IMG/VR virus record: IMGVR_UViG_3300043411_001575
Coordinates: 105,659 to 169,658 of that record
Source of the DNA: a virus
Reading direction: 5' to 3' (one strand)
DNA: 64,000 nt
Positions 1-18,898 of this stretch are shown here, in pieces. The notes under the pieces were generated by a model. It ran no database searches. It was given only the letters and a program-made list of their open reading frames with translations, and was not told the DNA's origin. The stretch's first letter is position 1; the number at the start of each line of letters is the position of its first letter. The translations under genes and the position numbers were made by a program.

Positions 1-35
1 AGTACAAAAGCCCACATTGCACAAAGCCGATGTTA
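1..35 (+). repeat. Partial attC-like site H0 (right arm only, cut by window edge)
   Basis: TGTTA at 31-35; GTTAGCCGCAGTA is complementary to TATTGCGGCTAAC at the end of cassette 1. Confidence 0.7.
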
Positions 36-766
36 GCCGCAGTACATTCTATCAGGGTGATTGTCTTGTGGAAATGGATAAGATTTCCGATAAAAGTGTG
101 GATATGATTTTATGTGATTTGCCTTATGGAACAACAGCTTGCAAATGGGATAGTGTCATTCCTTTTGAGCCACTTTGGAAGCAATATGAAAGGATTATAA
201 AAGATAACGGGGCAATAGTTTTGACAGCTTCGCAACCATTTACAACAATATTAATAAGCAGCAATATAAAGTTATTCAGGTATGAATTAATTTGGCAAAA
301 GGATAAGGCAAGTGGGTTTTTAAATGCTAATAAAATACCATTGAAAGCACACGAAAACGTTTTAGTATTTTACAAAAAGTTACCTACATATAATCCGCAA
401 AAAACCATTGGTGGGCTGCAAAGGAAAAGGACAAGGAAAAAACCAACGCATGAGGTTTTAGGTAAAACTGGTGTAAATGAAAAACACGTTATTTGGCAAG
501 ATAACACAAGATACCCTATAAGTGTTTTAGAATTTGATGTAGATACTATTAACCACAGTTTGCACCCTACTCAAAAACCAATAGCATTAATGGAATATTT
601 AATAAAAACCTACACCAACGAAGGAGAAACAGTTTTAGATAACTGTATGGGTTCAGGAACAACTGGTGTGGCTTGTAAAAAAACAGGTAGGCACTTTATC
701 GGAATAGAAAAGGATGAAAAGTATTTTGAAATTGCCGTTAGCAGGGTGTCTGCGTATTGCGGCTAA
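17..766 (+). CDS. N6-adenine/N4-cytosine DNA methyltransferase (beta class), cassette 1; true start probably upstream of window
   Basis: DLPY motif IV, HPTQKP, DNCMGSGTTG motif I; frame open to the window edge; stop codon is the TAA of TAAC. Confidence 0.92.
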   Translation: MHKADVSRSTFYQGDCLVEMDKISDKSVDMILCDLPYGTTACKWDSVIPFEPLWKQYERIIKDNGAIVLTASQPFTTILISSNIKLFRYELIWQKDKASGFLNANKIPLKAHENVLVFYKKLPTYNPQKTIGGLQRKRTRKKPTHEVLGKTGVNEKHVIWQDNTRYPISVLEFDVDTINHSLHPTQKPIALMEYLIKTYTNEGETVLDNCMGSGTTGVACKKTGRHFIGIEKDEKYFEIAVSRVSAYCG

Positions 767-878
767 CGTTTTGCAGATAGGCGTTGTTGCCTCACAAATG
801 ATTGATTGAAACACTAAATTTAATAATATGGGAAATGATAATTTAAAAACGGAAAGCAATAACGCCAATGTGCTGTTA
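764..878 (+). repeat. attC-like hairpin H1
   Basis: TAACG-tttt-GCAGATAGGCGTTGTTGC ... GCAATAACGCCAATGTGC-TGTTA. Confidence 0.85.
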
Positions 879-1169
879 GGTGCTGGGTTTGTTTACTTGG
901 TAGAATGTTCATCAGGAAGTTGGGATAGTTACCATTGGTGGGTTGGAGGAATATTTGAAAAGCAAGAAGATGCTGATAAATATGCACAAAGCTTGAATGA
1001 TGAAAACAAACGATTAAAAGAGGTTGAATGCTCAATAAAAACACCATTTGAAGATATGACTGATGAAGAAGAAACGGAGTATTACAGGTGGTGGAATGGT
1101 AACAATGATGCTATGGAATGGAATGGTGCTAAAGTTAAGCAGTACCCCATAAACAAACCTTGCACCTAA
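828..1169 (+). CDS. Hypothetical protein, cassette 2
   Basis: 113 aa ORF; ATG inside the H1 loop, stop in the next TAAC. Confidence 0.8.
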   Translation: MGNDNLKTESNNANVLLGAGFVYLVECSSGSWDSYHWWVGGIFEKQEDADKYAQSLNDENKRLKEVECSIKTPFEDMTDEEETEYYRWWNGNNDAMEWNGAKVKQYPINKPCT

Positions 1170-1254
1170 CGATTGGGTGTATGAGAAGGTTTGCTTAGAT
1201 GAACTTTTAAATTTACACAGAATTTTATAGCAAACTTTCTTATACACCTTGTTA
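1167..1254 (+). repeat. attC-like hairpin H2
   Basis: GGTGTATGAGAAGGTTTGCT / AGCAAACTTTCTTATACACC arms between TAACG and TGTTA. Confidence 0.85.
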
Positions 1255-1317
1255 TGTACAGGCACGGTAAATTACCGATGAACTTAATTAAATGAACGAA
1301 ACTAATAATTTTTAAAA

Positions 1318-2058
1318 ATGTGGGATGGCAAATATGCTTTTGAAAAAAGCAAAATAATACAAGGAGATAGTTTGGATAAAATAAAATATATACCTAATGG
1401 CAGTATTGACTTAATTGTAACTGACCCACCGTATAAAATGACGAAACAAGGTAATTCTTGCAGACCAAATTATATGAAAAGTGGAATGGGTGAAAACTTA
1501 TTTGATGGTGAATTACCAAATACAAAAGAATGGATGAAACTTTGTTTTGATAAACTAAAAGACGATGCCCATTTCTATGTATTTACCAATATAAATAGTT
1601 TGCACGAATACCTTGATGTTGCAAAAGAATGTGGATTTAAACTACATAATATTATAAGTATGATTAAAGATACCAAAATGCCTAATAGATGGTATTTAAA
1701 ATACACTGAATTTGTATTGTTTTTTAGAAAAGGTAAAGCGTTTCCAATAAACGATATGACAAGTAGAGATTATGAATTTGTTGAAACACCAACATTAAAA
1801 AATGGCAAAATACATATATCACAAAAACCATTGAATTTTATTGAAAAACTAATAACAAATTCATCAAATGAAGGTGAAATATGTTTGGATTTATTTAGTG
1901 GAAGCGGAACACTTGCAGAAGCCTGTATAAATACAAATAGAGATTTCATTATTATAGAGAAAAACCCAAATGACTTTGAAAAAGGCAAAGAAAGGGTGGG
2001 AAAAATTTTTAAAAATTATGGAATTAACATACAACCTTTAATCGAAGCACAAATGTAG
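1318..2058 (+). CDS. N6/N4 DNA methyltransferase, cassette 3
   Basis: TDPPY, HISQKP, DLFSGSGT motifs. Confidence 0.92.
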   Translation: MWDGKYAFEKSKIIQGDSLDKIKYIPNGSIDLIVTDPPYKMTKQGNSCRPNYMKSGMGENLFDGELPNTKEWMKLCFDKLKDDAHFYVFTNINSLHEYLDVAKECGFKLHNIISMIKDTKMPNRWYLKYTEFVLFFRKGKAFPINDMTSRDYEFVETPTLKNGKIHISQKPLNFIEKLITNSSNEGEICLDLFSGSGTLAEACINTNRDFIIIEKNPNDFEKGKERVGKIFKNYGINIQPLIEAQM

Positions 2059-2068
2059 TGCTTGTACA

Positions 2069-2155
2069 TAACGTTTTCGGGCTTGGCGAAGGTGGGCTTG
2101 TAGGATGCTCAATTTTAGCACAATGTGTCTGCCCACTTTTGCCAAACCCGTGTTA
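2069..2155 (+). repeat. attC-like hairpin H3
   Basis: CGGGCTTGGCGAAGGTGGGC / GCCCACTTTTGCCAAACCCG arms. Confidence 0.85.
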
Positions 2156-2252
2156 TATGAAGTGCCGACTTATTAAGCAGAATTTTAAATTGAAACTATA
2201 AACAGAAAAACAAAAAAGAAAAAAAGCGTAGGGAATTTTAAAAACAAACAAT

Positions 2253-2519
2253 ATGGAAAAGAATTTTATTGAAAAAGCAGAAAAAGAAATTGGTAGAAAA
2301 TTTGGTTTTTTCATCAGATGTGATGATAAAAACAAACCAACAGAAGTATTAACCGATATGTACTTTGAACTATGGGAAACAGAAAAGATGAACGAGATTT
2401 TATCTTTATGCGAAACACATAATCTTAAATACGATTTTGGTTTAGAAAGTTTTGATACCAAAATAGATGCTATTGAACAAGAAATATGTATTGTTTCAAC
2501 TAATTGCGAAAATTCATAA
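2253..2519 (+). CDS. Hypothetical protein, cassette 4 gene 1
   Basis: 88 aa ORF with A-rich leader; stop abuts the next ATG. Confidence 0.65.
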   Translation: MEKNFIEKAEKEIGRKFGFFIRCDDKNKPTEVLTDMYFELWETEKMNEILSLCETHNLKYDFGLESFDTKIDAIEQEICIVSTNCENS

Positions 2520-2520
2520 A

Positions 2521-3264
2521 ATGGAAGCAAATACGATTTACAAAGGCGATTGCTTTGAACTTATAAAGCAAATAACAAAAGCAGATAACGTCAAACTTAT
2601 TATTACAGACCCACCATATTTACATAATAAAGGAGGTGGGAAAACATCGGGAACAGAGGGTAAAAGTTCAATAGCTAATAGCCCTATGTATAAATTCGAT
2701 TCATTTATGATGGAAGATATGAGTTCTTTTTTAGAGGAAGATGTTTATAATCTATTAGATGAATATAAAAGAATAATGACAAAATTAAACTGCTTTATAT
2801 TTACTAATGACACTTTGATACCGTATTATACAATGTGGGCAGTTAAAAACAATAAAAAGTTTACAATTTTAACTTGGGAAAAACCATTGTCGATTTTAAA
2901 CAGAAATAGATTTAGTCAGAATTTAGAATATGTTGTGAGGATTTACGACAATGGAACTGCACTTAATTTAATAGATTTAGAAGCATATCCCGAAAAGAAA
3001 AACTACTACTCAAAAAACAGAAGGTTAAATTCGCCTACAAATAAGATACACCCAACCCAAAAACCATTAGAATATCTACTTGGATTGATTGAGTTAAATA
3101 CAAATGAAGGCGATTTAGTATTAGATACGTTTTTTGGTAGTGGACAAACAGGTAAGGCTTGTCAGATTTTAAATAGAAATTATATCGGTTTTGAAAGAGA
3201 AGAAAAGTATGTTGAATTATCAAATAAATATTTACAACAAGGATTTGAAAAAACACTATTTTAA
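2521..3264 (+). CDS. N6/N4 DNA methyltransferase, cassette 4 gene 2
   Basis: TDPPY, HPTQKP, DTFFGSGQTG; start MEANTIY chosen at 2521 (ORF track starts at 2467). Confidence 0.9.
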   Translation: MEANTIYKGDCFELIKQITKADNVKLIITDPPYLHNKGGGKTSGTEGKSSIANSPMYKFDSFMMEDMSSFLEEDVYNLLDEYKRIMTKLNCFIFTNDTLIPYYTMWAVKNNKKFTILTWEKPLSILNRNRFSQNLEYVVRIYDNGTALNLIDLEAYPEKKNYYSKNRRLNSPTNKIHPTQKPLEYLLGLIELNTNEGDLVLDTFFGSGQTGKACQILNRNYIGFEREEKYVELSNKYLQQGFEKTLF

Positions 3265-3339
3265 AAGTGTGGTGGCTTTTTTCTTTTTGTTTTTCATTAA
3301 CGGAACTTCAATTGGAAACGGTCAGCAAGGCATTTCATA

Positions 3340-3459
3340 TAACGTTCGAGGGCTTGGCGAAGTGGCTGAACCTGAAGCTAAATAGAATTACTAAACTTAA
3401 AAATTAAGAACGAATGATTGATATAATTACTGAACAGCCATTTTGCCAAACCCGTGTTA
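3340..3459 (+). repeat. attC-like hairpin H4
   Basis: GGGCTTGGCGAAGTGGCTG / CAGCCATTTTGCCAAACCC arms; near-identical to H5, with the same arms as H12. Confidence 0.85.
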
Positions 3460-4223
3460 GTGGCAGTACTTTTGTGAATGCTGATTGCTTTGATGTTTTT
3501 CCTTTTATCGAGGATAAATCAATTGATGCTATTATTTGCGATTTGCCCTATGGAACAACTCAATGTAAATGGGATAGCATTATTAATTTAGATTTGATGT
3601 GGACGCAATACAACAGAATAATAAAAGATAACGGCATTTTTATATTATTTGCAGATGAGCCTTTTACAAGCATATTAATAAATAGTAACATTAAAAATTT
3701 TAAGCAAAGAATAACTTGGGATAAACAAATAGCAGGAGGTCATTTAAACGCTAAAAAAATGCTATTGAAAAGAACTGAGGATATATGCTTATTTTCAAAT
3801 GTTAAAAATGGAAAATATACATACAATCCTATTTTAAAAGATAAGGATTTTAAAAACATAAGAGATAGAAACGGAGAAAACAGAAAAGAGTTTAAAGGCG
3901 GTTATGTAGGGAAACACAATAGTACGTTGAGTAAAGAGCATAACAATAAAAAAAGTTACCCAGATAATTTAATTTCCTTTTCAGCAAGAAAAGGCGATTG
4001 TAACCCTATAAATAGATTACACCCAACACAAAAACCACTTGAATTGATGGAATATCTTATAAAAACCTATACTAATGAGGGCGATTTGGTTTTAGATAAC
4101 ACAATGGGTTCTGGAACAACAATTTTAGCTGCTATAAAAAATAATAGAATTGGTATAGGAATTGAAAAGGAAAAACAATATTATGATGTCGCTGTTCGTA
4201 GGGCTTCGGAGTATTGCCACTAA
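3414..4223 (+). CDS. N6/N4 DNA methyltransferase, cassette 5
   Basis: DLPY, HPTQKP, DNTMGSGTT; ATG in H4 loop. Confidence 0.92.
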   Translation: MIDIITEQPFCQTRVSGSTFVNADCFDVFPFIEDKSIDAIICDLPYGTTQCKWDSIINLDLMWTQYNRIIKDNGIFILFADEPFTSILINSNIKNFKQRITWDKQIAGGHLNAKKMLLKRTEDICLFSNVKNGKYTYNPILKDKDFKNIRDRNGENRKEFKGGYVGKHNSTLSKEHNNKKSYPDNLISFSARKGDCNPINRLHPTQKPLELMEYLIKTYTNEGDLVLDNTMGSGTTILAAIKNNRIGIGIEKEKQYYDVAVRRASEYCH

Positions 4224-4340
4224 CGTTATCGGGCTTGGCGAAGTGGCTGAACCCGAAGCTAAATAGAATTACTAAACTTAAAAATTAAAAACGAATGTCA
4301 AATAGAATTACAGAACAGCCATTTTGCCAAACCAGTGTTA
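4221..4340 (+). repeat. attC-like hairpin H5
   Basis: Same arm family as H4. Confidence 0.85.
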
Positions 4341-5053
4341 GTGGCAGTACTTTTGTAAATGCTGATTGCTTTGATGTTTTTCCTTTTATTGAGGACAAAT
4401 CAATTGATGCTATTATTTGCGATTTGCCTTATGGAACTACTGCTTGTAAGTGGGATACAATTATACCATTTGAGCCGCTATGGGAGCAGTACAAGCGAGT
4501 GATTAAACCTAATGGTGCGATAGTGCTGTTTAGCAAAGAGCCATTTACGTGCATATTGAGAACAAGTGAAATTAAAATTTTTAAGCAACCTCTTATTTGG
4601 GATAAGGTTAATTCAGATAACCCTATGCAGGCAAAAAGAAGACATCTAAACACTACGGAGGATATTTCTATCTTTTACAAATCTCAATGTACTTATAACC
4701 CACAAGGTCTTATAAAGTCAAATATAAAAAAGGGAGGGAAGCAAGGGATAATGATTGATAGTAGTGGTAAGGAAAAAGAACAATATATTCAAGAGAATAC
4801 CAATTATCCGAAAAATATATTAGTGTACCCGATAGAAAGAAAGGCGGTTCATCCAACTCAAAAACCCGAAGCACTCCTGCAATACTTAGTCAAAACCTAC
4901 ACTAACGAAGGCGATATAGTCTTAGATAACTGTATGGGTTCAGGTACAACAAATCTTGCTTGTTTAAAATTAAATCGCAAATCAATTGGAATAGAAAAGG
5001 AAAAACAATATTACGATGTCGCTGTTCGTAGGGCTTCTGAGTATTGCCACTAA
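4295..5053 (+). CDS. N6/N4 DNA methyltransferase, cassette 6 (paralog of cassette 5)
   Basis: DLPY, HPTQKP, DNCMGSGTT; ATG in H5 loop; ends near-identical to cassette 5. Confidence 0.92.
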   Translation: MSNRITEQPFCQTSVSGSTFVNADCFDVFPFIEDKSIDAIICDLPYGTTACKWDTIIPFEPLWEQYKRVIKPNGAIVLFSKEPFTCILRTSEIKIFKQPLIWDKVNSDNPMQAKRRHLNTTEDISIFYKSQCTYNPQGLIKSNIKKGGKQGIMIDSSGKEKEQYIQENTNYPKNILVYPIERKAVHPTQKPEALLQYLVKTYTNEGDIVLDNCMGSGTTNLACLKLNRKSIGIEKEKQYYDVAVRRASEYCH

Positions 5054-5107
5054 CGGTATCCGTATAAGGGAAGTGCGAGGAACGAGCATTTACTTTATAC
5101 GGTGTTA
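5051..5107 (+). repeat. attC-like hairpin H6 (shortest, 57 bp)
   Basis: CCGTATAAGGGAAGTGC / GCATTTACTTTATACGG arms. Confidence 0.85.
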
Positions 5108-5198
5108 GCAAAGTGCGTTGGGATTGTGTGTCGGCTCGTTCCAAAACCATTTATTTTCTTTTTTTTGGGGAGGTTTTGAAAACTTTTTTACTAAAATA

Positions 5199-5229
5199 CT
5201 TGCTAAATGACAATTTATATTTATCTTTG
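5199..5229 (+). promoter_or_regulatory. Bacteroidota sigma70-type promoter inside cassette 7
   Basis: TTG at 5200-5202, 19 nt spacer, TATCTTTG at 5222-5229 (TAnnTTTG -7 consensus). Confidence 0.65.
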
Positions 5230-5260
5230 AACCATATTAATAATCTAAAAACAAAACAAA

Positions 5261-5572
5261 ATGATTTACAAAAAAACACACTATGATAAAAAGGCTTTAA
5301 ACAGCCACGTTTCAAAAATAAAAGATGCAGGAGGAAATGCAATAGTAGATGGATTATCGGTTAGATATTTCTATCCATCCAATACCATTGGTGAAATTAG
5401 ATTAAAGCATAAGAGTTGGAAGAAAACAGAAAGACAAGAAGTTTTGTTTATTGTTTTAGTTTCTGAAAAAGATAAAACGCCATACTATTCAGCAATGTAT
5501 TTCCCGAAATGGGTTGAAATAGGAGGTGTTTATGGAAACAAAAATGACATAACAATAATCGAAAAGTTTTAA
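5261..5572 (+). CDS. Hypothetical protein, cassette 7 gene 1
   Basis: 103 aa ORF downstream of the promoter, A-rich leader. Confidence 0.75.
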   Translation: MIYKKTHYDKKALNSHVSKIKDAGGNAIVDGLSVRYFYPSNTIGEIRLKHKSWKKTERQEVLFIVLVSEKDKTPYYSAMYFPKWVEIGGVYGNKNDITIIEKF

Positions 5573-5574
5573 CT

Positions 5575-5730
5575 ATGAAACTGTCTGTAACAGAATATGC
5601 AAAACAGCTTGGCGTAACTCGTCAAGCCGTTTTGTTACAAATTAAAGAAAAAAGGTTGCCTAAAAATGTGAAGGTTGAAAAAATCGGAAATACTTATTCT
5701 TTAACTGTGGGTGGGCAAAAAAGAAAATAA
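5575..5730 (+). CDS. Small helix-turn-helix DNA-binding protein (excisionase/MerR-like), cassette 7 gene 2
   Basis: Read by hand, absent from the ORF track: MKLSVTEYAKQLGVTRQAVLLQIKEKRLPKNVKVEKIGNTYSLTVGGQKRK (51 aa). Confidence 0.7.
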   Translation: MKLSVTEYAKQLGVTRQAVLLQIKEKRLPKNVKVEKIGNTYSLTVGGQKRK

Positions 5731-5749
5731 ATGGTTTTGGAATGTTTGC

Positions 5750-5839
5750 TAACGTATGGTGCTATGAGCAGGTTTGCCTTGCAGAAATGTTCAAATTTAG
5801 CACTAATGTTATTGGCAAACTTGCTTATAGCACGTGTTA
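5750..5839 (+). repeat. attC-like hairpin H7
   Basis: GTGCTATGAGCAGGTTTGCC / GGCAAACTTGCTTATAGCAC arms. Confidence 0.85.
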
Positions 5840-5875
5840 GCGGTAGTTTATTTTTCAAAAATTAAAATTAAAAAT

Positions 5876-6334
5876 ATGGGAACACAAGTAGTAGGAGAAA
5901 GTAACAGCGTTGAGTATAGCACTCCGTTGAAAATAGTACAGCCATTGATAAACGAATTTGGCTTAACAAGAGATGTTTGTGCAAGTGAATTAAACCACAA
6001 ACTACCCGATTATTGGACAAAAGAAGATAATTCACTTGCTATGAATTGGAAAGGTAATTGTTGGATGAACCCACCATTTAGCAGAGATTTGAATAAGTGG
6101 GTAAAGAAAGCGTGTAATGATGCTGAAAGGTTTGGAGGAACGAAAGTTTGTTTAATACCTGTAAGAAGCAATACAAAATGGTGGGCGGAAGTTTGTGTAA
6201 AAGCAGAAATTCGTTTTATCAATGGCGAAGTAAATTTTAATGATGAAGAACGTGGACTTTGGTTGCCGATGTGTATTATCATTTTCGGTGAGAAGGCAAA
6301 GGTTGGCACGTTCTCTGTCTTAAATTACCGCTAA
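5876..6334 (+). CDS. Phage-type DNA N6-adenine methyltransferase (Dam family), cassette 8
   Basis: STP, DVCAS, WMNPPF, LIPVRSNTKWW, IRFINGEVNF motifs; start at MGTQ. Confidence 0.88.
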   Translation: MGTQVVGESNSVEYSTPLKIVQPLINEFGLTRDVCASELNHKLPDYWTKEDNSLAMNWKGNCWMNPPFSRDLNKWVKKACNDAERFGGTKVCLIPVRSNTKWWAEVCVKAEIRFINGEVNFNDEERGLWLPMCIIIFGEKAKVGTFSVLNYR

Positions 6335-6404
6335 CGTTTTGCAGCTAACAGAAGGCGGCTTTTTAGCAAACTTAGTACTTGCCGCTTTTTGTTAGCTGCT
6401 GTTA
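6332..6404 (+). repeat. attC-like hairpin H8
   Basis: GCAGCTAACAGAAGGCGGC / GCCGCTTTTTGTTAGCTGC arms. Confidence 0.85.
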
Positions 6405-6462
6405 GTGGACTGTTAAATTATTAAAAAAGAAAAAAGGAGGGGTGCGAGGGCATCTAAACATA

Positions 6463-7299
6463 ATGGACAAGAAGAAACTTTTAATTGCTTTTAGTGGTGG
6501 AGAAACATCTGCATTTATGGCTCAATGGTTATGGAAACATAAACAAGGTGAATACGAAATGTTATTTGCTTTTGCTAATACTGGGGTTGAGAATGAAGAA
6601 ACTTTAAACTTTGTGCATAAATGCGAAGTTGAATTTGGTATAAATGTTAATTGGTTGGAAGCAGTAATAGACCAAGAGAAAGGGAAAGGCACAAGGCATA
6701 AGATTGTTGATTACAAAACAGCAAGTAGAAACGGACAACCATTTGAGGAACTGATAAAGAAATACGGTTTACCAAACCAACAGCGATTTCACTGCACAAG
6801 GGAGTTAAAAAATAATACATTGATTTCATTTGCAAAAAGTATTTGGGGAAAGGAAAAGTATTATTTAGCAATAGGAATTAGAGTAGATGAATTTGATAGG
6901 ATGAATGATAAATTTAAAGAGTTGAGAATTGTTTATCCGTTAATTTCAGAAATTCCAATGACAAAGCCAAAGATTAATTTTTGGTGGAAACAACAACCGT
7001 TTAGATTAGAATTAAAAGGTTATCAAGGGAATTGTGTTACTTGCTACAAAAAAAGTGATAAAAAATTGTTTCAGATAGCTAAAGAAAATCCAAGTGCATT
7101 TGATTTCTTTGATAGAATGGAAGAACAATATGGAGAAGGTAAGTATCAATTTTTTAGGCAGAACCGAACAGCTAAACAAATTATGGAACAAGCTAAAGAA
7201 TGGAATGGCAATGTAACCGATGACGCACAAAATGTTACAATACAAACAGATTTATTTAGCGAAAGTTGTGAAGCATTTACAAGCGATTGCGGTGTTTAA
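6463..7299 (+). CDS. PAPS-reductase-like / adenine nucleotide alpha-hydrolase family protein, cassette 9
   Basis: FSGGETS PP-loop, FANTGxE, CTRELK, IGIRxDE, YPL, GNCxxC motifs. Confidence 0.85.
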   Translation: MDKKKLLIAFSGGETSAFMAQWLWKHKQGEYEMLFAFANTGVENEETLNFVHKCEVEFGINVNWLEAVIDQEKGKGTRHKIVDYKTASRNGQPFEELIKKYGLPNQQRFHCTRELKNNTLISFAKSIWGKEKYYLAIGIRVDEFDRMNDKFKELRIVYPLISEIPMTKPKINFWWKQQPFRLELKGYQGNCVTCYKKSDKKLFQIAKENPSAFDFFDRMEEQYGEGKYQFFRQNRTAKQIMEQAKEWNGNVTDDAQNVTIQTDLFSESCEAFTSDCGV

Positions 7300-7368
7300 C
7301 CTTTTCACAGTTTTGAAAAAACTGAAAGAGTGCGTGGGCTTTTTCTTTTTTAATAATTTAATTGCCAC

Positions 7369-7494
7369 TAACGGTTCGCAGGTATATTTAGTTGCGGACT
7401 TAGTAACACAAAACTTTAAATTTAGAAGAAATGAAGAAAGAAGAACAAAACTCGAATGAACCACAAAAACCGCAATTGAATATACCTGCTGTTA
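7369..7494 (+). repeat. attC-like hairpin H9
   Basis: GCAGGTATATTTAGTTGCGG / CCGCAATTGAATATACCTGC arms. Confidence 0.85.
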
Positions 7495-7787
7495 GTTGCA
7501 GTGTTGTTCATTGCAAGAAAGCACCTTATGATGTTTATATTGGAAGACCAAGCAAATGGGGTAATCCATTCACACACATAAAAGACGGTAAAACACTTGC
7601 AAAACATATTGTAGGTAGTAGAGATGAAGCAGTCGAAGCATATCTTGAATGGATTACCAACGGAGAAGGTAAACATTTGATGAGTGATTTACACGAATTG
7701 AAAGATAAGGTGCTTGGTTGTTGGTGTCATCCACAATCTTGTCACGGAGATGTACTTTCGGAGTTGGTTGCTAAACATTGCAACTAA
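7431..7787 (+). CDS. DUF4326-like protein, cassette 10
   Basis: VYIGRPSKWGNPF and LGCWCHPQSCHGDVL motifs; ATG in H9 loop. Confidence 0.85.
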   Translation: MKKEEQNSNEPQKPQLNIPAVSCSVVHCKKAPYDVYIGRPSKWGNPFTHIKDGKTLAKHIVGSRDEAVEAYLEWITNGEGKHLMSDLHELKDKVLGCWCHPQSCHGDVLSELVAKHCN

Positions 7788-7909
7788 CGTTTTGCAGGTA
7801 TATTTAGTGCCGAATTTAAAAACGAAAAATATGAATTTTATACAAAAGTTATTTAAAAGCAGAAAGGTTAATGAACCGATGAACTCGGCATTGAATATAC
7901 CTGTTGTTA
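7785..7909 (+). repeat. attC-like hairpin H10
   Basis: GCAGGTATATTTAGTGCCGA / TCGGCATTGAATATACCTGT arms. Confidence 0.85.
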
Positions 7910-8133
7910 TACCTCGTTTATCTTCTGATTGGATAAAATTTGAGGATGAAAAACCACCACACGAAGTAGTATTAGCTGCTTGCGATACTTATGATTGTGG
8001 ATGGACTATGGATACTGTTTGGTGGTATGAAGATAAGCAATGTTGGATGGTTACTGGTGCAGTTAAAAGTACAGAAGCACATTTACCATACACACATTGG
8101 CGTAAATTACCACCATTTCCAAATGAGGTATAA
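7831..8133 (+). CDS. DUF551-like phage protein, cassette 11
   Basis: WIKFEDEKP...THWRKLPPFP pattern; ATG at 7831 in H10 loop. Confidence 0.7.
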   Translation: MNFIQKLFKSRKVNEPMNSALNIPVVIPRLSSDWIKFEDEKPPHEVVLAACDTYDCGWTMDTVWWYEDKQCWMVTGAVKSTEAHLPYTHWRKLPPFPNEV

Positions 8134-8256
8134 CGTATTGGTGCTATACGAAGGAGGCGATTATTAGCACTAAATTTGATGCGGAGTACAAATGTTTGTT
8201 TAACCACAAATGTTTCTGCGGAGTACCAAACCGCCTCTTTTGTATAGCACGTGTTA
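8131..8256 (+). repeat. attC-like hairpin H11
   Basis: GTGCTATACGAAGGAGGCG / CGCCTCTTTTGTATAGCAC arms; TGCGGAGTAC occurs twice in the loop. Confidence 0.85.
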
Positions 8257-8320
8257 TACGCTGGCACGGTTGATTAAACGAGAAACTTAAATTGAAACAC
8301 AAAACAAAATTTTTATTAAA

Positions 8321-9106
8321 ATGAGCGAGGGCAAAAAAGAAATATTATTAGGAGATTGTTTGGAACTTATGAAGGATATACCAAACGGAAGTATTGATAT
8401 GATACTTTGTGATTTACCATACGGAACAACTGCTTGTAAATGGGATAGTGTAATACCTTTTGAACCACTTTGGAAAGAATATGAAAGGATTATAAAGACC
8501 AATGGTGCTATTTTATTGTTTGGAACACAACCATTCACAACAGAACTAATATTGAGCAATAGAAAATTGTTTAAGTATGATATGGTTTGGTGCAAAGACA
8601 AACCTGCTGACTTCGGAAATGGCAATATAAAACCATTAAGATACCACGAAACAATTTGTGTATTTTATACCAAAACGCCAACATACAATAAGCAATTTGA
8701 AAGCAGAAAAGGAACTGGCTATTCAAGGGCTAAATATCCTGTAAATTACATAAACAATTCAGAGCATAAATTTGGAATGAAAGATGGTTCTTTTGATTAT
8801 GCAAATAAAGACAGAATGATTGGAACTGTAATAGATATTACAACTGGTGCAAGAGGTAGCATAAAACACCCAACAGTAAAGCCCGTTCCTTTATTTGAAC
8901 ATTTAATCAAAACATATACCAACGAAGGTGAATTGGTTTTAGATAATACAGCAGGAAGCGGAACAACTGCAATTGCTTGTTTGAATACTAAAAGGCAATT
9001 TATAGTAATGGAAAAAGAACAAAAGTATTACGATATGATTTTAAAAAGGGTGGGAGATTTTAATAAAAATTTTGAACCGCAAACTCTCTTTGGAAACGAA
9101 ATGTAG
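8321..9106 (+). CDS. N6/N4 DNA methyltransferase, cassette 12
   Basis: DLPY, HPTVKP, DNTAGSGTT. Confidence 0.92.
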   Translation: MSEGKKEILLGDCLELMKDIPNGSIDMILCDLPYGTTACKWDSVIPFEPLWKEYERIIKTNGAILLFGTQPFTTELILSNRKLFKYDMVWCKDKPADFGNGNIKPLRYHETICVFYTKTPTYNKQFESRKGTGYSRAKYPVNYINNSEHKFGMKDGSFDYANKDRMIGTVIDITTGARGSIKHPTVKPVPLFEHLIKTYTNEGELVLDNTAGSGTTAIACLNTKRQFIVMEKEQKYYDMILKRVGDFNKNFEPQTLFGNEM

Positions 9107-9116
9107 TGCTTGCGTA

Positions 9117-9236
9117 TAACGGTATCGGGCTTGGCGAAGTGGCTGAACCGAATGTTTGATAGAAGCACAAAACTTAATAATTAAAAACGAATGATTGATA
9201 GAATTACTGAACAGCCATTTTGCCAAACCCGTGTTA
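9117..9236 (+). repeat. attC-like hairpin H12
   Basis: Same arm family as H4/H5. Confidence 0.85.
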
Positions 9237-9985
9237 TGTGCAGGGCGGTTGATAACCTTGAACTCCTTTTGTCGCAACCTGATGAAAGTGTAGATTTGAT
9301 TTACTGTGATATTCTTTATGGAACGGGTAGGAATTTCGGTGATTACCAAGACTTAAAACCAATTAGAAGCGAAATAGAAAGCCACTACCTACCAAGACTT
9401 ATTGAAATGAAACGAGTTTTAAAAAGTACAGGTAGTATTTATTTGCAAATGGATACACGAATAAACCATTGGATGCGCATTTTGATGGATGATGTTTTTG
9501 GGTATGAAAATTTCCGCAATGAAATAGTATTTGGATATAATGGGGGTGGTGTTTCAAAGAATTGTTATCCTAAAAAACACGACATAATCTTGTTTTATTC
9601 TGTTAGTGATAAATACTATTTTAATAACGAAAAGAAACCATACTCCGCTTTAAGTTCACAAAACTTATTGTGGAAACATAGGAATAAAAAAAGACTTGAT
9701 GAACTTAATGATGGCACACCTGTAACCGATGTATGGACTGATTTGAAGTTTAAAATAAATTACCAAGAGGAAGAATATACAGGATATGCTACCCAAAAAA
9801 CAAAAGAATTATTGAGCCGTATTGTTTTAGCTTCCACAAATGAAGGCGATACAGTTGCAGATTATTATTTAGGTAGTGGCACAACGGCAGTAGTTTGTAA
9901 GGAACTGAACCGAAATTTTATAGGTTGCGATATTAATCCAAAAGCTATTGAAATAACAAATGCTCGTTTAGATGCACTTTCGTAG
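9191..9985 (+). CDS. N6/N4 DNA methyltransferase (Mod-like), cassette 13
   Basis: YCDILY (variant motif IV), FRNEI, YATQK, DYYLGSGTT; ATG in H12 loop. Confidence 0.88.
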   Translation: MIDRITEQPFCQTRVMCRAVDNLELLLSQPDESVDLIYCDILYGTGRNFGDYQDLKPIRSEIESHYLPRLIEMKRVLKSTGSIYLQMDTRINHWMRILMDDVFGYENFRNEIVFGYNGGGVSKNCYPKKHDIILFYSVSDKYYFNNEKKPYSALSSQNLLWKHRNKKRLDELNDGTPVTDVWTDLKFKINYQEEEYTGYATQKTKELLSRIVLASTNEGDTVADYYLGSGTTAVVCKELNRNFIGCDINPKAIEITNARLDALS

Positions 9986-10044
9986 CTTTGCACATAACGT
10001 GTATTTAATGGAATGGAGTGTCAAAATCAATTAGTTACATAATA
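9985..10044 (+). other. Putative attI-equivalent primary recombination site
   Basis: Last TAACG (9995-9999) is not followed by a hairpin and lies directly 5' of the recombinase. Confidence 0.55.
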
Positions 10045-10914
10045 ATGGAAGATAAAATTAACAAATTAAGGAGGGAGTTATCCATAAGGAAATATGCTCC
10101 TAATACAGTTGAAACATATTGTTCATGTCTTAAAGTTATTTTTAGTAAATGTGGAATTAATCCAAGTATTGATTCTTTAAAGTCATATTTATTAACTATT
10201 GAAAATAGAAACTACCATAAACAAATAGTCGCTACATTCAGAAACTACTCTGAATTTGTATTAGGTATTAAATTATCTTTAAACGATGTTCCTTATCCTA
10301 GAAAACAAGAAAGTTTGCCTGAAATATATTCAGTTGAAGAGGTTTCTAAATTAATTAATATTCCTAAAAATTTAAAACATCAATCTATAATTTTTTTATT
10401 GTATGGATGTGGACTTAGAGTTAGTGAATTAATTAATTTAAAATTAACTGATATAGATAGTGATAGAATGGTTGTTAACATCCGAAAAGCAAAAGGAAAT
10501 AAGGACAGGCAAATAATGTTGGATGAATCTTTACTTAAATTACTTCGTGATTATTACACTGAATATAAACCAATAAATTATTTATTCAATGGTCAAAAAA
10601 AAGACCAATATAGTGACAGGTCTGTAAATGAACTTCTTAAATATTGGTCTAAAAAAGCAGGTATAAAAAAACATATTCATGCTCATTTATTAAGGCATTC
10701 ATTCGCTACCCATCTTTTAGATGCAGGAATAGACATGGCTATAATTCAAAAGTTATTAGGTCATTCAAACATAAAAACAACGCAAATTTATGCAAAAATT
10801 TCAACCAAATTAATATCTCAAATTAAATCTCCATTATCAAACATTAAAATCAATTCAAATGAAAAATCTAGTAATATTATTCCTTTGTGGAATTCTGATA
10901 GGTTTCCAAACTAA
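10045..10914 (+). CDS. Tyrosine recombinase (XerD/integron-integrase-like, without the IntI I2 insertion)
   Basis: YGCGLRVSE (R), KGNKDR (K), HLLRHSFATH (HxxR), LGHSNIKTTQIY (H, Y); N-terminal SAM-like domain; ORF track starts at GTG 10018. Confidence 0.93.
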   Translation: MEDKINKLRRELSIRKYAPNTVETYCSCLKVIFSKCGINPSIDSLKSYLLTIENRNYHKQIVATFRNYSEFVLGIKLSLNDVPYPRKQESLPEIYSVEEVSKLINIPKNLKHQSIIFLLYGCGLRVSELINLKLTDIDSDRMVVNIRKAKGNKDRQIMLDESLLKLLRDYYTEYKPINYLFNGQKKDQYSDRSVNELLKYWSKKAGIKKHIHAHLLRHSFATHLLDAGIDMAIIQKLLGHSNIKTTQIYAKISTKLISQIKSPLSNIKINSNEKSSNIIPLWNSDRFPN

Positions 10915-10975
10915 GACCAAAAAGCAATTTAACTTTAAATCTCATTCAAAATTAACTAAAGCTGATTCCTAAAAC

Positions 10976-11737
10976 GTGCTAAAATTAGAAGATAAAGATT
11001 TCAATGACTATGTTACCCATCTTAGTGAATCAGGGTCAAGATTTATTGTAGACGAAAAAAGGAACACTAAAAGTATAATTATTAGTGGAAAATATTTTGC
11101 ATTTACAAAAAACAAAAACCATTTAGCTAAAGGTGAAGAAAAAAAAGAAATGTTATCTCTATTTAGTCAGGTAGGAAAATCTGTTTCAAACTACATAAAA
11201 CTAAATGAGTTTGATGTAGAAAAAATAAAGCAGATTCATCCGCAAACTCAAGTTGACAGAAAAAAATATGAGAAGATGAAAGTAGGAGCTGAGTTCTTCT
11301 ATGTTGATATTTCCCATTGTTTTTGGAGAATTGGTTTTTTAAAAGGATACATTAATCCAAAGCTATACAACAAAGTATTAAAGAACCCAAGTTTAAAGCA
11401 ATTCAGGAACATGTCCCTTGCCATAATTAAAGCAGCTCGCTCTAGGTACTATTTTGATAATGGCAAACTAATAAATAAAGTTACTGAAGAAAGAACCCTG
11501 TGGGAGAATGTATATGATAACATCAGGTTCACCTGCTATAACTTTTTAGGAGAAACAAAGAGTGTTGCAGGAAATAAATTCGTCGCTTACAAAACAGATG
11601 GTATAATGGTCACTAGACCCGCTTTAAAGAAGATTAAAGATGCTTTCACTGCGGCAGGATTCGAATACAAGGTTATCACCTGCTTTAAAGTTGATGATAA
11701 AAACTACTCTTATGGAGGTCTAATTAAGAAGATTTAG
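10976..11737 (+). CDS. Small family-B DNA polymerase palm-like protein
   Basis: YVDISHCF (motif A-like), KQFRNMSL (motif B-like) and YKTDGI (motif C-like) in the correct order; no exonuclease domain. Confidence 0.5.
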   Translation: MLKLEDKDFNDYVTHLSESGSRFIVDEKRNTKSIIISGKYFAFTKNKNHLAKGEEKKEMLSLFSQVGKSVSNYIKLNEFDVEKIKQIHPQTQVDRKKYEKMKVGAEFFYVDISHCFWRIGFLKGYINPKLYNKVLKNPSLKQFRNMSLAIIKAARSRYYFDNGKLINKVTEERTLWENVYDNIRFTCYNFLGETKSVAGNKFVAYKTDGIMVTRPALKKIKDAFTAAGFEYKVITCFKVDDKNYSYGGLIKKI

Positions 11738-15793: not shown

Positions 15794-16040
15794 AATTTTA
15801 GAAAACCTTTGTTACTATGACAAGCGCAATCCTAACTGCACAATGGATGATAAGGAATTAAAAGAGCATCGTGAAAGCAGAAAACGTAATAATTTAATCG
15901 CTTTGAAAAATCTACGAGCAAAAGGTGTGAAAATAACTGAATACGAATCAGGTTGCTCATGTGACAACTGCTTCTACGGGAGAACAGAATTAGCAGAGGA
16001 AATTTTAAAACTTAAAAATATTCAAAATGAAACAGTATAA
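15780..16040 (+). CDS. Cys-rich hypothetical phage protein
   Basis: LCYYDKRNP...CSCDNCFYGRTELA. Confidence 0.75.
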   Translation: MELNKILENLCYYDKRNPNCTMDDKELKEHRESRKRNNLIALKNLRAKGVKITEYESGCSCDNCFYGRTELAEEILKLKNIQNETV

Positions 16041-16227
16041 ATACAAGGTAATATACCTTAACGGAAACGAAGAAACATTCACCTGTAATGGTTTCAATTC
16101 TGCAATTATTTTAGGCATGGCTCATGCTATCCATAAAGCTTGGGATATGAGAATAAAATACATCACCGATGAAAAAGGTGTACAAATTAAGGATATTGAA
16201 TCACCTACTTACAATTATTCACATTAA
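16027..16227 (+). CDS. Hypothetical protein
   Basis: 66 aa ORF overlapping the previous gene. Confidence 0.65.
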   Translation: MKQYKYKVIYLNGNEETFTCNGFNSAIILGMAHAIHKAWDMRIKYITDEKGVQIKDIESPTYNYSH

Positions 16228-16239
16228 AAGCCAAGCTCA

Positions 16240-16635
16240 ATGAAAAATAAACCTATAAAAATATCAATCCCATTTGGCTTATCTGCAAAAGATGAAGTTA
16301 ATGCAATATCAGAAATGCTTATTCAAAAAAAATTAAGCGGAAAAGGGGTAAATGAAAATAAAAAGCAGATTGGCGATAGAGTTGATGTTCATTACTTAGA
16401 ACAAACAATTATTGTAAAACGTGTTCCAAAAGAAAAAATTATCGAACACGTTAAATGTTCTGCGTGTAATTGTGATTATCAGAGTGACTTATTTTTTCCT
16501 GTATTTGTTAACTATGGTGGCAAAAACAAAAAATTAAAATTTTGTTCTGTTATCTGCCAAGAAAATGTAATTGATTTATGTGGAGAAGGCAGAGCGTCAA
16601 AGAAAAATAATTTAAAACCACTTTTTAAACACTAA
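16240..16635 (+). CDS. Hypothetical protein with TRASH/MYM-like zinc finger
   Basis: CSAC...FCSVIC. Confidence 0.65.
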   Translation: MKNKPIKISIPFGLSAKDEVNAISEMLIQKKLSGKGVNENKKQIGDRVDVHYLEQTIIVKRVPKEKIIEHVKCSACNCDYQSDLFFPVFVNYGGKNKKLKFCSVICQENVIDLCGEGRASKKNNLKPLFKH

Positions 16636-16642
16636 AAACAAA

Positions 16643-16813
16643 ATGAAAACAACAGCAACAGGTTATCGAATTTCTAAAAATGGTAGCATTATACCATCAA
16701 TAGAAAAAGAAGCAATTAAGAAAACTTCATACGAAGGTAATTGCATTAAAGAAGAAGGTATTTATTACTTCTTTGACAGAAAACAAGGAAATATTTTCAT
16801 TTATTTACCCTAA
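16643..16813 (+). CDS. Small hypothetical protein (56 aa)
   Basis: Read by hand: MKTTATGYRISK...; fills the gap, A-rich leader. Confidence 0.55.
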   Translation: MKTTATGYRISKNGSIIPSIEKEAIKKTSYEGNCIKEEGIYYFFDRKQGNIFIYLP

Positions 16814-16823
16814 CAAAAAAATC

Positions 16824-17174
16824 ATGGAACTAAGTAAAGAACAAATCATTGATGATTATAAAAGAAGATTAGAAAATATTTCTGAATTAATCAAAAGTCA
16901 AACACATAATGGAAGTGTTTACGACATACAAAAAAGAGAAAGACTTGTCACTAAGCAATCTGAATATAGAACTTTTATATCAGATTTATCAAAATTAGCT
17001 CCTGCTAAAAATAATACTCAATCTAAAATTGACGAGTATACTGAAATGTTGAATAACATGAAGGAAAATCAATCTAAAGAAATTGACCATCTAAATGATG
17101 AGCAAATTCATTCTTACGAAGAATGTATCAGATTAACAGCAGGTTTCATTAAAACACTAAAAGAATTACTTTAA
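16824..17174 (+). CDS. Hypothetical coiled-coil protein
   Basis: Start MELSKEQ preferred over 16773. Confidence 0.7.
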   Translation: MELSKEQIIDDYKRRLENISELIKSQTHNGSVYDIQKRERLVTKQSEYRTFISDLSKLAPAKNNTQSKIDEYTEMLNNMKENQSKEIDHLNDEQIHSYEECIRLTAGFIKTLKELL

Positions 17175-17235
17175 AAAAATAATCGTTCTTTATAAAAAAT
17201 CAACCCAATTTAAAAACAAAAAAACAAAAACAGTT

Positions 17236-17931: not shown

Positions 17932-17941
17932 AAAAAACAAT

Positions 17942-17972
17942 AATCCCCATTTACAAAAGTAGATGGGGATTT
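17942..17972 (+). terminator. Intrinsic terminator
   Basis: AATCCCCAT...ATGGGGATT hairpin right after the stop codon. Confidence 0.65.
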
Positions 17973-18010
17973 AATTAAAAAAAGTTGGTAAATAATTTAA
18001 TATAAATACC

Positions 18011-18667: not shown

Positions 18668-18679
18668 AATCATAATAAA

Positions 18680-18886: not shown

Positions 18887-18898
18887 AAAACGGAAATA

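Follow-up and report, generated by a model that had tools for sequence, protein, structure and literature searches.

An integron-like gene-cassette array of reversed polarity beside a Xer-like tyrosine recombinase gene in a Flavobacterium-type phage

Background

Integrons are defined by an IntI integrase and by cassettes in which an open reading frame (ORF) is followed by its attC site, with expression from one promoter at the insertion end. The viral locus described here raises the question of whether a long row of hairpin-bearing gene cassettes, beside a tyrosine recombinase gene that does not encode IntI, is a system of the same kind, and if so which unit moves, where it is joined and by which enzyme. 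We analysed a window of 64,000 nt (positions 105,659 to 169,658 of IMG/VR record IMGVR_UViG_3300043411_001575) together with the remainder of the array to its left. The carrier is a 170-kb Flavobacterium-type phage in which ~47 cassettes form a 38-kb array, 22% of the genome, with a Xer-like recombinase gene as its neighbour.

Arrays classed as CALINs have been published from virulent phages, including Polaribacter phage P12002L, with methyltransferase cargo and no integrase in those phages; the sites were treated as classical attCs for bacterial IntI, and P12002L_attC1 was the only one of six tested sites without verified IntI1 recombinants (Qi et al. 2023, PMC9892861). Unlike the present work, that study describes no dedicated recombinase, polarity or large arrays (PMC9892861), and beyond such phage "CALINs" we found no published description of this recombinase, of the polarity or of an array on this scale. 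We hold it likely, at a probability of roughly 0.7, that the locus is a phage-borne, integron-like platform for gene-cassette capture, reversed in polarity and driven by a Xer-like tyrosine recombinase instead of IntI, catalysis being inferred.

Results

Organization of the array

The whole array spans genome positions 77.2/77.8–115.66 kb, of which 28 kb lie left of the window. The features within the window, each on the + strand, are as follows.

1..9998, +: recombinase-proximal 10 kb of the array, 13 cassettes, all genes on the + strand
1..35, +: right arm and R' box GTTAGCCGC of a hairpin starting 89 nt before the window
17-766, +: methyltransferase gene with its start in the loop of the hairpin ending at 35
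764..878, +: attC-like hairpin, R' = GTTAGGTGC; the loop holds ATG 828 of a 113-aa gene
1167..1254, +: attC-like hairpin, intergenic; R'' = GCACCTAAC, R' = GTTATGTAC
2069..2155, +: attC-like hairpin, intergenic, of the GGGCTTGGCGAAG stem family
3340..3459, +: hairpin H4, 120-nt family; contains ATG 3414 and ~14 codons of methyltransferase gene 3414-4223
4221..4340, +: hairpin H5; contains ATG 4295 of methyltransferase gene 4295-5053
5051..5107, +: hairpin H6, short type, unrelated to H5
5750..5839, +: hairpin before the cassette of a Dam-type methyltransferase (gene ~5876-6334)
6332..6404, +: hairpin before the cassette of a PAPS_reduct-like (PP-loop) gene, 6463-7299
7369..7494, +: hairpin; loop with ATG 7431 of DUF4326 gene 7431-7787
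7785..7909, +: hairpin, R' = GTTATACCT; loop with ATG 7831 of a 100-aa gene, 7831-8133
8131..8256, +: hairpin before methyltransferase cassette 8321-9106
9117..9236, +: hairpin, 120-nt family, R' = GTTATGTGC; contains ATG 9191 of the last-cassette methyltransferase gene 9191-9985
9990..9998, +: terminal R'' box GCACATAAC, no hairpin behind; proposed crossover TAA|C to TAAC|G
9999..10044, +: attI-like flank, non-folding, conserved in relatives, motif AAAATCAATTAGTTA
10045..10914, +: Xer-like tyrosine recombinase, 289 aa

Throughout the array the genes lie on the + strand and each cassette starts with an attC-like hairpin; all 47 hairpins share one strand, and only a single minus-strand ORF of at least 100 aa occurs in the 38 kb. 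The cargo consists mainly of orphan DNA methyltransferases and other likely anti-restriction genes, while the H6 cassette combines a promoter-like motif with two genes, one of 103 aa and one of 51 aa that is of helix-turn-helix type. At its left end, at 77 kb, the array carries a promoter-like motif and a half-degenerate hairpin without a clear TAAC box. Promoter motifs of Bacteroidota type are present in ~7 cassettes; although the usual gradient of expression with cassette position had been expected to be either reversed or absent, these promoter-bearing cassettes fit an absent gradient better than a reversed one, expression itself being inferred.

Anatomy of the hairpin sites

Each site reads, in order, xxxxxTAAC, a spacer of 4-5 nt, a ~20-bp stem, the loop, the returning stem, T and GTTAyyyyy. 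Both boxes are present at 47/47 hairpins, so that the criterion of attC-type boxes used for integrons is met, and between them the stems are diverse and the hairpins vary in length from 57 to 130 nt. The ends of successive sites are related to each other: in genome 77.8-115.66 kb, the 47 pairs of neighbouring hairpins include 37 in which the five bases of R' that follow GTTA and the five of R'' that precede the next TAAC are exact reverse complements. Shuffling the partners 10,000 times gave a mean of 2.5 such matches and a maximum of 9, and the pattern is far beyond chance.

The + (coding) strand forms the more stable hairpin in 44/47 cases. The asymmetry stems from a 5'-side bulge of 4 nt and from G.T wobbles, which are conserved. 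A preference for the + strand is equally compatible with selection on mRNA. About one third of the cassettes have the start codon of their gene inside the hairpin loop, and no Rfam family matches the hairpins.

The mobile unit and its crossover

The sequence-only reading of this locus had proposed that each hairpin belongs to the gene downstream of it, pointing to two paralogous cassettes (its cassettes 5 and 6, the N6_N4 methyltransferase genes 3414-4223 and 4295-5053) with similar hairpins upstream and unrelated ones downstream. The measurement agrees, with an identity of 90% for H4 and H5 against just 39% for H5 and H6, and of 71% for the gene bodies, but on its own this comparison is weak evidence because the H4/H5 family includes the start codon and the first ~14 codons of the gene. 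Four independent presence/absence events of cassettes in cultured Flavobacterium phages (indels or replacements in Muminvirus and Lillamyvirus) establish the assignment. In three of them the hairpin at the empty site is identical or nearly so to the one downstream of the extra cassette or cassettes (identity 1.00, 0.93 and 1.00) and resembles the upstream one only at 0.62, 0.59 and 0.59; the fourth event is an indel of 506 bp that distinguishes isolates of 99.9% identity. The junctions of all four events fall within the 7-nt window TAACGTT, to the left of the hairpin, where a crossover at the AAC of the plus strand had been predicted, and they link hairpins with unrelated bodies (~60% alike) that have just TAACGTT in common. 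The IntI-integron criterion of an ORF placed before its own attC, with crossover G|TT in the distal box, is not met in the four indels.

Comparisons within and between genomes give the same boundaries. Two paralogous cassettes of this phage, at 84239-85149 and 114774-115657, have TAAC at both ends, and within the genome unrelated hairpins come after gene 3' ends with 94-97% identity; in Logan contigs of another metagenome, the gene ends at window 772 and 9997 recur with different hairpins attached. Together with the indels these observations, which come from assembled contigs only and include no circle-junction data, show that the mobile unit is the upstream hairpin, the gene and xxxxxTAA. Some exchange also occurs at the right-hand side or inside genes, because a 120-nt hairpin module is 92-97% identical in other phages where both of its flanks differ, and because the homology of the gene body from 77887 begins at GTTA, behind an unrelated hairpin.

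Under the opposite, canonical polarity, a gene would move with the hairpin behind it, crossover would be at G|TTA, attI would lie at the 77-kb end and the recombinase would be distal by chance. The + strand order of gene, xxxxxTAAC, hairpin and GTTA does resemble an ORF followed by attC, the 77-kb end has its promoter-like motif and degenerate hairpin, and one gene homology starts exactly at GTTA. We nevertheless find this arrangement barely credible: the downstream hairpin is kept at the empty site in 4/4 natural indels, identical gene ends run into unrelated hairpins, no hairpin stands behind the last cassette, and the TAAC junction on the recombinase side is conserved in eight relatives.

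The same junctions count against a view in which the hairpins act mainly at the RNA or regulatory level, as 5' leaders, processing sites or terminators, and are shuffled as a by-product of homologous or microhomology-mediated recombination between repeats, a route proposed for T4-type phages and their promoter-stem-loop modules. Such a role would suit the better folding of the coding strand with its G.U-compatible wobbles, the start codons in loops, and hairpin modules that are more conserved than the genes; we judge it quite improbable even so, given hairpin bodies only ~60% alike at junctions that share only TAACGTT, the lack of any Rfam match, and an exact 9-nt complementarity of cassette ends that has no obvious RNA role over 300-1400 nt and is a known signature of circularising cassettes.

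The junction on the recombinase side

GTG 10018 opens the longest recombinase ORF, but comparison with relatives places the start at ATG 10045. The last TAAC (9995-9998) lies in box 9990..9998, the junction between the last cassette and a conserved flank, and this terminal box is the reverse complement of the R' that comes after hairpin 9117-9236. As had been noticed from the letters alone, no hairpin follows it: the 46 nt to ATG 10045 do not fold (-0.5 kcal/mol, vs -1.9 for shuffles), and the flank was likewise non-folding in the five relatives tested, making 6/6 with the window. The layout of a variable last cassette ending in (T/C)AAC, a conserved stretch of ~45 nt and the recombinase start is conserved in the window and in eight relatives (L010, L028, L029/L030, L036, L035, L050, L051 and L052), whose recombinases have 48-80% amino acid identity. 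In the window and 4/8 relatives (L029, L035, L036 and L051) the box before TAAC/CAAC complements the R' of the last hairpin, as it does over 8 nt in L052. The array ends 40-60 nt from the recombinase start in 9/9 loci, among them one on a Flavobacterium chromosome and others on phage backbones that differ.

Read on the minus strand, the locus has the canonical integron geometry with every ORF inverted, as the sequence-only reading held. Its placement of cassette insertion at about 9997 gains indirect support from the layout kept in the eight relatives, the insertion event itself remaining an inference, and from four Muminvirus species, whose differences in cassette content concentrate at that end of the array.

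The recombinase

The protein has a full Phage_integrase domain, with the catalytic residues R, K, H-x-x-R, H and Y present in alignments. Its best match among solved structures is XerA (4A8E, 2.9e-44), and its nearest solved relatives are XerA, XerD and XerH; it scores under the equivalog cut-offs for XerC, XerD and XerA. Its alignment with VchIntIA (2A3V) is broken in two, 25 residues standing in place of the 68 of IntI, and against TIGR02249 the protein reaches 154.8 bits in two stretches, where the cut-off is 265. The additional domain specific to IntI is the alpha-I2 insertion between patches II and III. A classification of the locus as an IntI integron was rejected, since the recombinase lacks this insertion and resembles archaeal XerA.

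Neither a Y1 transposase nor a second tyrosine recombinase was found in the phage. An HUH (Y1) enzyme could in principle move the cassettes as single-strand transposable units, in the manner of IS200/IS605 or PATEs, with insertion 3' of TAAC; the units are strand-specific with a subterminal hairpin, each of their two junctions carries a fixed tetranucleotide, and the intermediates would be single-stranded circles. This explanation is hardly tenable when Y1_Tnp (PF01797) is missing from this phage and from four cultured array phages, when each unit has one hairpin and not the two, one at either end, that IS200/IS605, PATE and REP-RAYT elements call for, and when the units occur only in tandem, at one locus, beside a tyrosine recombinase.

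Arrays without a recombinase

Arrays of this kind also occur in nine complete phage genomes, five of them from cultured phages and four from IMG/VR records rated 100% complete by CheckV, that have no tyrosine recombinase; the same holds for a fifth array-bearing IMG/VR record, 68% complete, and the arrays of Muminvirus, Lillamyvirus and P12002L come with no tyrosine recombinase at all. Phages lacking the enzyme still gain and lose cassettes, as seen from one cassette that differs between isolates 99.9% identical. Such turnover implies that the enzyme may come from elsewhere, or that the recombinase next to the array has another task.

The second alternative would make the movement a TAAC-specific reaction of a host or other enzyme acting in trans, and 10045-10914 an ordinary integrase or dimer resolvase whose own site borders the array by chance. 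It draws on the nine complete array phages that lack a Phage_integrase domain and yet show recent cassette gain or loss, and on the generic character of the small Xer-like protein. We regard it as unlikely, because the 40-60 nt spacing in 9/9 loci makes a coincidence unlikely and arrays without recombinase would be explained by enzyme supplied in trans from co-infecting phages or the host.

Discussion

Relation to known systems

The array shares with integrons its tandem single-gene cassettes, imperfect-palindrome sites bounded by ...AAC and GTT... boxes, first cassette bases that complement the box at the other end, and a strand-specific folding asymmetry. The conserved unfolded flank beside the 5' end of the recombinase gene, with variable cassettes next to it in nine loci, would correspond to the unfolded primary site of integrons. 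The array differs in its recombinase, which is without the IntI-specific insertion and nearest to XerA, in a site that comes before the gene and in many cases encodes the start of that gene, in an asymmetry derived from a 5'-side 4-nt bulge and G.T wobbles instead of extrahelical 3'-arm bases, in having no single Pc-type promoter where cassettes would insert, and in its viral carrier. The CALIN criterion of at least two attC sites and no IntI is formally met, the neighbouring recombinase not being IntI; the label describes such arrays and explains nothing about them. Among published phage CALINs, P12002L_attC1 has the same site anatomy, located between two methyltransferase genes and on their coding strand.

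In the "inverted integrase" integrons of Treponema, Chlorobium and others, the integrase is flipped, the order of ORF then attC is kept and the enzyme is a true IntI. The phage locus resembles them in that recombinase and cassette genes have the same orientation, but it keeps the canonical integrase-attI geometry and has its ORFs flipped. Among Xer recombinases and the elements that exploit them (XerA/dif, XerCD/dif and the folded single-strand attP of CTX phage), action on a folded single-strand hairpin is known, and Xer/dif systems use a single dif-type site of ~28 bp, two 11-bp arms around a 6-8-bp centre. The array sites do not meet this two-arm criterion; in contrast to dif, dozens of different hairpins have only TAAC and GTTA in common. 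The promoter-early stem-loop (PeSL) modules of T4-type phages, whose exchange is thought to be driven by homology, likewise flank small accessory genes with stem-loops in a hyperplastic region and are linked to gene shuffling, whereas the junctions of the phage array connect unrelated hairpins through a motif of 7 nt, and its cassettes have complementary ends.

A possible mechanism

On the reversed-polarity reading, a cassette would open with C and a 4-5-nt spacer, continue through the hairpin (a stem of ~20 bp, its loop and the returning stem), T and GTTAxxxxx, and close with the gene and xxxxxTAA, every ORF being inverted relative to its attC as compared with classical integrons. In the excised circle the two cassette ends are predicted to pair into an R stem of 9-10 bp at the base of the cassette's own hairpin. 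The strand that folds would be the + (coding) strand, with strand exchange at the 5' arm of the hairpin in TAAC(GTT). This single-strand chemistry is inferred, the greater + strand stability of 44/47 hairpins being indirect evidence only, and so is its catalysis by this recombinase. Cassettes may enter at the attI-like site, which is unfolded and lies ~46 nt before the start of the recombinase gene; the newest cassette would then adjoin the recombinase, at the 3' end of the co-oriented row of genes; this direction of growth is an inference as well.

A wider proposal, to which we give even odds, is that a separate non-IntI clade of small Xer-like recombinases runs a reversed-polarity cassette system in phages of Flavobacteriia and occasionally in host chromosomes. 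The site would double as a translation-start module, and the cassettes, for the most part anti-restriction methylases, would belong to a single pool on which virulent phages without the enzyme also draw, the activity reaching them in trans through co-infection or from the host.

Implications for phage biology

Relative to integrons the logic of the folded site is kept, while the enzyme clade, the polarity of the genes and the carrier are changed, and the locus offers what would be a testable second instance of gene capture via single-strand hairpins; a small recombinase with short structured sites might also serve as a tool. The finding also suggests a reason for the failure of one such phage attC in published IntI1 assays. 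Reversed polarity puts new cassettes at the far end of transcription units, so that cassette-borne starts and periodic internal promoters become necessary, a different solution to the expression of captured genes, inferred as its consequences for expression are. The system would explain the swapping of methyltransferases among Flavobacterium phages; a published study connects phage methyltransferases with unequal plating efficiency on Flavobacterium host strains (PMC7077304), and methylase cassettes would serve to defeat host restriction. If the reading of a non-IntI clade is true, folded-DNA gene capture had its origin or diversified in a lineage other than IntI, and cassette capture serves phages as an arsenal against host defence.

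Extent and cargo of the array

The virus record (169,658 bp, 30.7% G+C, 82% complete by CheckV), whose final 64 kb are the window, is strongly enriched in TAACG on the plus strand between 75 and 120 kb of the genome. A scan for AAC...GTT inverted repeats yields about 47 hairpins, all in a single orientation, between 77.8 and 115.66 kb (the latter equal to window position 9998), and the array in the window is the right-hand end of this much larger structure. Along the array stretch, 36 open reading frames of at least 100 amino acids lie on the plus strand and one on the minus strand, and cassettes range from 296 to 1476 nt in length, with a median of 878 nt. At least 17 of the plus-strand frames resemble the Pfam-verified N6_N4 or Dam methyltransferases of the window; further cargo in the window consists of a PP-loop (PAPS_reduct) protein, a DUF4326 protein and small unknown proteins. 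At the left end, 28 kb before the window, lies a hairpin-like element (genome ~77,233–77,366) whose right box, GTTATAAGC, complements GCTTATAAC at 77,777. No TAAC is found to the left of this element, which is preceded by a 69-amino-acid gene and a promoter-like motif.

Over window positions 1–10000, the freshwater metagenome run X2 covers the recombinase-adjacent backbone contig at a depth of 41 and several cassette contigs at 5.6–19. These depths are only a hint of population-level variation in cassette content, and such use of depth has been warned against.

Anatomy of the hairpin sites

Read on the plus strand, every site follows one order: a left box xxxxxTAAC (R''), a G and four bases left unpaired, a roughly 20-bp stem, a 10–80-nt loop, the returning stem, a T, and a right box GTTAyyyyy (R'). 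The stems belong to several unrelated sequence families that have in common two G.T wobbles in which the 5' arm contributes the G. Computed with DNA parameters, the plus-strand fold is the more stable one in 44 of 47 sites (means -15.0 versus -12.9 kcal/mol for the minus strand), and a search of window positions 1–11000 against Rfam gave no match at E ≤ 0.1. Successive sites are chained: in 37 of 47 pairs the 9-nt right box of one hairpin and the 9-nt left box of the following one are exact reverse complements, against a mean of 2.5 and a maximum of 9 when partners were shuffled; where the chain breaks, self-comparison reveals chimeric cassettes formed by homologous exchange inside repeated genes. 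A likeness of some R'' boxes, such as GCGCATAAC, to a dif arm was set aside; the five variable positions vary freely from one cassette to another. The hairpin loop contains the ATG of the main gene in about one third of cassettes, so that translation includes the right arm and the GTTA box, and in ten cassettes the TAA of TAAC is the stop codon.

One 120-nt hairpin module, including the ATG and about 14 codons, occurs three times in the window (3340–3459, 4221–4340 and 9117–9236) and on three unrelated phage contigs (L013:2400–2519, L022:588–710 and L020:994–1121). Its copies in this phage and on such contigs are 92–97% identical, with neighbouring genes that are unrelated or only about 75% identical; either a shared cassette origin or an additional exchange at the GTTA side could account for this.

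The hairpin travels with the downstream gene

The features of the window that bear on cassette polarity and insertion are as follows.

3340–3459, plus strand, attC-like hairpin H4
4221–4340, plus strand, attC-like hairpin H5
5051–5107, plus strand, attC-like hairpin H6
9995–9998, plus strand, last TAAC
9999–10044, attI-like flank
10045–10914, plus strand, Xer-like tyrosine recombinase gene

The sequence-only reading had assigned each hairpin to the gene downstream of it, on the grounds that the paralogous cassettes 5 and 6 have near-identical hairpins upstream and unrelated ones downstream. The hairpins are as described (90% identity for H4 and H5, 39% for H5 and H6), and the two cassettes carry paralogous methyltransferase genes, yet this observation alone cannot settle polarity: complementary boxes are compatible with both polarities, hairpins of the H4/H5 family form part of the coding sequence of the genes, and a member of this family also stands before an unrelated methyltransferase gene at 9117.

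What decides the matter is sequence comparison among cultured Flavobacterium phages (Muminvirus and Lillamyvirus), which carry the same kind of array, with 10–14 cassettes and the same 9-nt chain. Between the isolates mumin6-1 and mumin6-4, which share 99.9% identity, the difference is a 506-bp segment; bounded by two copies of TAACGTT, it comprises exactly one hairpin, gene gp008 and TTGCATAAC. Where snork9-1 lacks a cassette present in mumin, the hairpin at the empty site matches the one downstream of the extra cassette (identity 1.00) rather than the one upstream (0.62); the converse comparison, an extra snork cassette seen from mumin, gives 0.93 and 0.59, and three extra cassettes of filifjonk9-1 give 1.00 and 0.59. 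In all of these cases the left flank, through the 5 nt that precede TAAC, derives from one side, and from about 3 nt after TAAC the sequence derives from the other, which makes the mobile unit an upstream hairpin, its gene and xxxxxTAA. The canonical polarity, with crossover at GTTA, is rejected, for empty sites keep the downstream hairpin. The hairpins brought together at these junctions are too unlike one another for homologous recombination.

The genome containing the window agrees. Its last cassette (genome 114774–115657) and a paralogue at 84239–85149 share homology from the TAAC left of the upstream hairpin to the TAAC after the gene, and gene ends that are 94–97% identical continue into unrelated hairpins. 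In contigs of another metagenome, other hairpins follow the gene ends located at window positions 772 and 9997. The assignment of each hairpin to its downstream gene is thus borne out by gain and loss in the cultured phages and by the window's own genome, and the proposed crossover at AAC on the plus strand is supported, as the comparative junctions fall within TAACGTT, the inferred crossover window.

In Logan contigs, which break at the hairpins, no circle junction was seen. Several apparent contig joints (for example from 4226 to 8139) were rejected as cross-mapping of paralogous cassettes elsewhere in the genome.

The recombinase-proximal end

As had been noted from the sequence, no hairpin follows the last TAAC (9995–9998) and the recombinase is close by: 46 nt of unfolded sequence lead to its ATG at 10045. 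The same junction is present in all eight recombinase homologues with readable DNA (48–80% identity), where differing last cassettes end in (T/C)AAC and the recombinase starts 40–60 nt further on. Between the two lies a conserved stretch (AAAATCAATTAGTTA and variants) in which no fold was found in any of the six loci folded (the window and five relatives), each folding worse than shuffled sequence. Complementarity between the box before the terminal TAAC or CAAC and the last hairpin's R' box is seen in the window and in four relatives (L029, L035, L036 and L051), and over 8 nt in a further one, L052.

Three of these loci have features of their own. On a chromosome contig of Flavobacterium sp. 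GCA_046293665.1 (L035:3590–8000), which holds a copy of the phage layout, the post-hairpin box GTTGTAGGC has its complement, GCCTACAAC, 4.2 kb further on and 55 nt ahead of a recombinase of 48% identity, and genes for a SulP sulfate transporter and an NhaA antiporter lie between the two boxes. Next to the recombinase of L051 (5900–6000) is an apparently 'empty' cassette, with GTTATGCGG and CCGCATAAC only 12 nt apart and then the conserved flank. In the 118-kb relative L036, a Cas12f1-like_TNB (TnpB-type) domain hit and LAGLIDADG and GIY-YIG genes occur a few kb downstream of the recombinase (15800–19600).

The Muminvirus phages, which lack the enzyme, likewise have different last cassettes ending at TAAC before an identical flank. 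Among four of their species the first eight cassettes are collinear and the differences lie at the last-cassette/flank end, the internal gp008 indel being the exception. Both this end variation and the junction in relatives fit the earlier suggestion that new cassettes would enter at the TAAC–flank junction, at about 9997 in the window, and do not prove it.

The recombinase and its distribution

The recombinase is the only tyrosine recombinase of the phage. It has a complete Phage_integrase domain (1.9e-43), and the catalytic R, K, H-x-x-R, H and Y align to XerA. The best NCBIfam model is archaeal XerA (206 bits, just below the cut-off) and, among solved structures, Pyrococcus XerA (4A8E) matches best, with Thermoplasma XerA, VchIntIA and XerD next. 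Alignment to VchIntIA places 25 residues of the protein against 68 of IntI; the IntI-specific insertion is therefore absent, and the enzyme is not an integron integrase by the usual definition. A scan of bacterial genome contigs for relatives returned only a 30%-identical match in a Christensenellales genome. Within the Flavobacteriaceae, 43 of 151 genomes have a match at E ≤ 1e-55; most of the inspected loci encode integrases of about 380 amino acids with a different N-terminus and lack a TAAC junction, and only L035/L038 and perhaps L045 resemble the phage layout.

No tyrosine recombinase was found in nine complete phage genomes with such arrays, and no Y1 transposase in this phage or in the array phages tested. 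One cassette nevertheless differs between near-identical isolates of phages lacking the recombinase, which implies either that the enzyme acts in trans, from the host or a co-infecting phage, or that a different enzyme takes part. A role for the recombinase in cassette movement, catalysis included, is inferred.

Promoters and expression

Thirteen of the 18 plus-strand genome matches to the motif TTTG-N17-21-TAnnTTTG lie in the array, several of them inside copies of one hairpin family and so not independent. About seven cassettes dispersed over the array contain a looser Bacteroidota-type promoter motif, each time before a small gene and a 51-amino-acid helix-turn-helix gene. From motifs only, expression is predicted to be patchy and cassette-borne and not a gradient from one promoter.

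The helix-turn-helix gene is present in at least seven copies along the array at 83–97% DNA identity, near 80.9, 84.0, 89.2, 93.9, 94.7, 103.4 and 111.2 kb of the genome (window 5100–5730 among them). Its sole Pfam matches are weak and sub-threshold (HTH_17, E = 0.067), and the protein could be a regulator or a directionality factor.

Relation to integrons

Qi et al. 2023 (PMC9892861) described 'CALINs' in virulent phages, including two methyltransferase cassettes of Polaribacter phage P12002L, whose site P12002L_attC1 was the only one of six without verified IntI1 recombinants. We find that this site (L037, NC_028924, ~29,980–30,080) lies on the methyltransferase coding strand and has the same anatomy as the hairpins described here. 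Nilsson et al. 2020 (PMC7077304) noted that the methyltransferase content of Muminvirus is patchy and correlates with plating efficiency, without mention of hairpins or cassettes. A full-text literature search returned no description of an Xer-like recombinase tied to such arrays, of reversed polarity, or of phage arrays of this size.

Read on the minus strand, the region has, as proposed, the canonical integron layout with its genes inverted: a recombinase pointing away, an attI-like site, and cassettes that start with TTA... and end with a hairpin. On this reading the 'bottom' strand, which folds and is cut in its 5' arm at ...TAA|C, would be the plus strand; no excision product has been observed, and the strand so proposed is the one computed to fold better. 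Comparative sequence evidence supports the core of this interpretation, namely a hairpin that moves with its downstream gene, a crossover at the plus-strand AAC and an insertion point beside the recombinase. The difference from integrons is that all genes here are inverted relative to the site, and consequently the hairpin occupies the 5' leader of its own gene or the part that encodes the N-terminus, and the newest cassette would be the last gene of the row, adjoining the co-directional recombinase gene. We regard the system as one variant of the integron principle, outside the IntI integron family.
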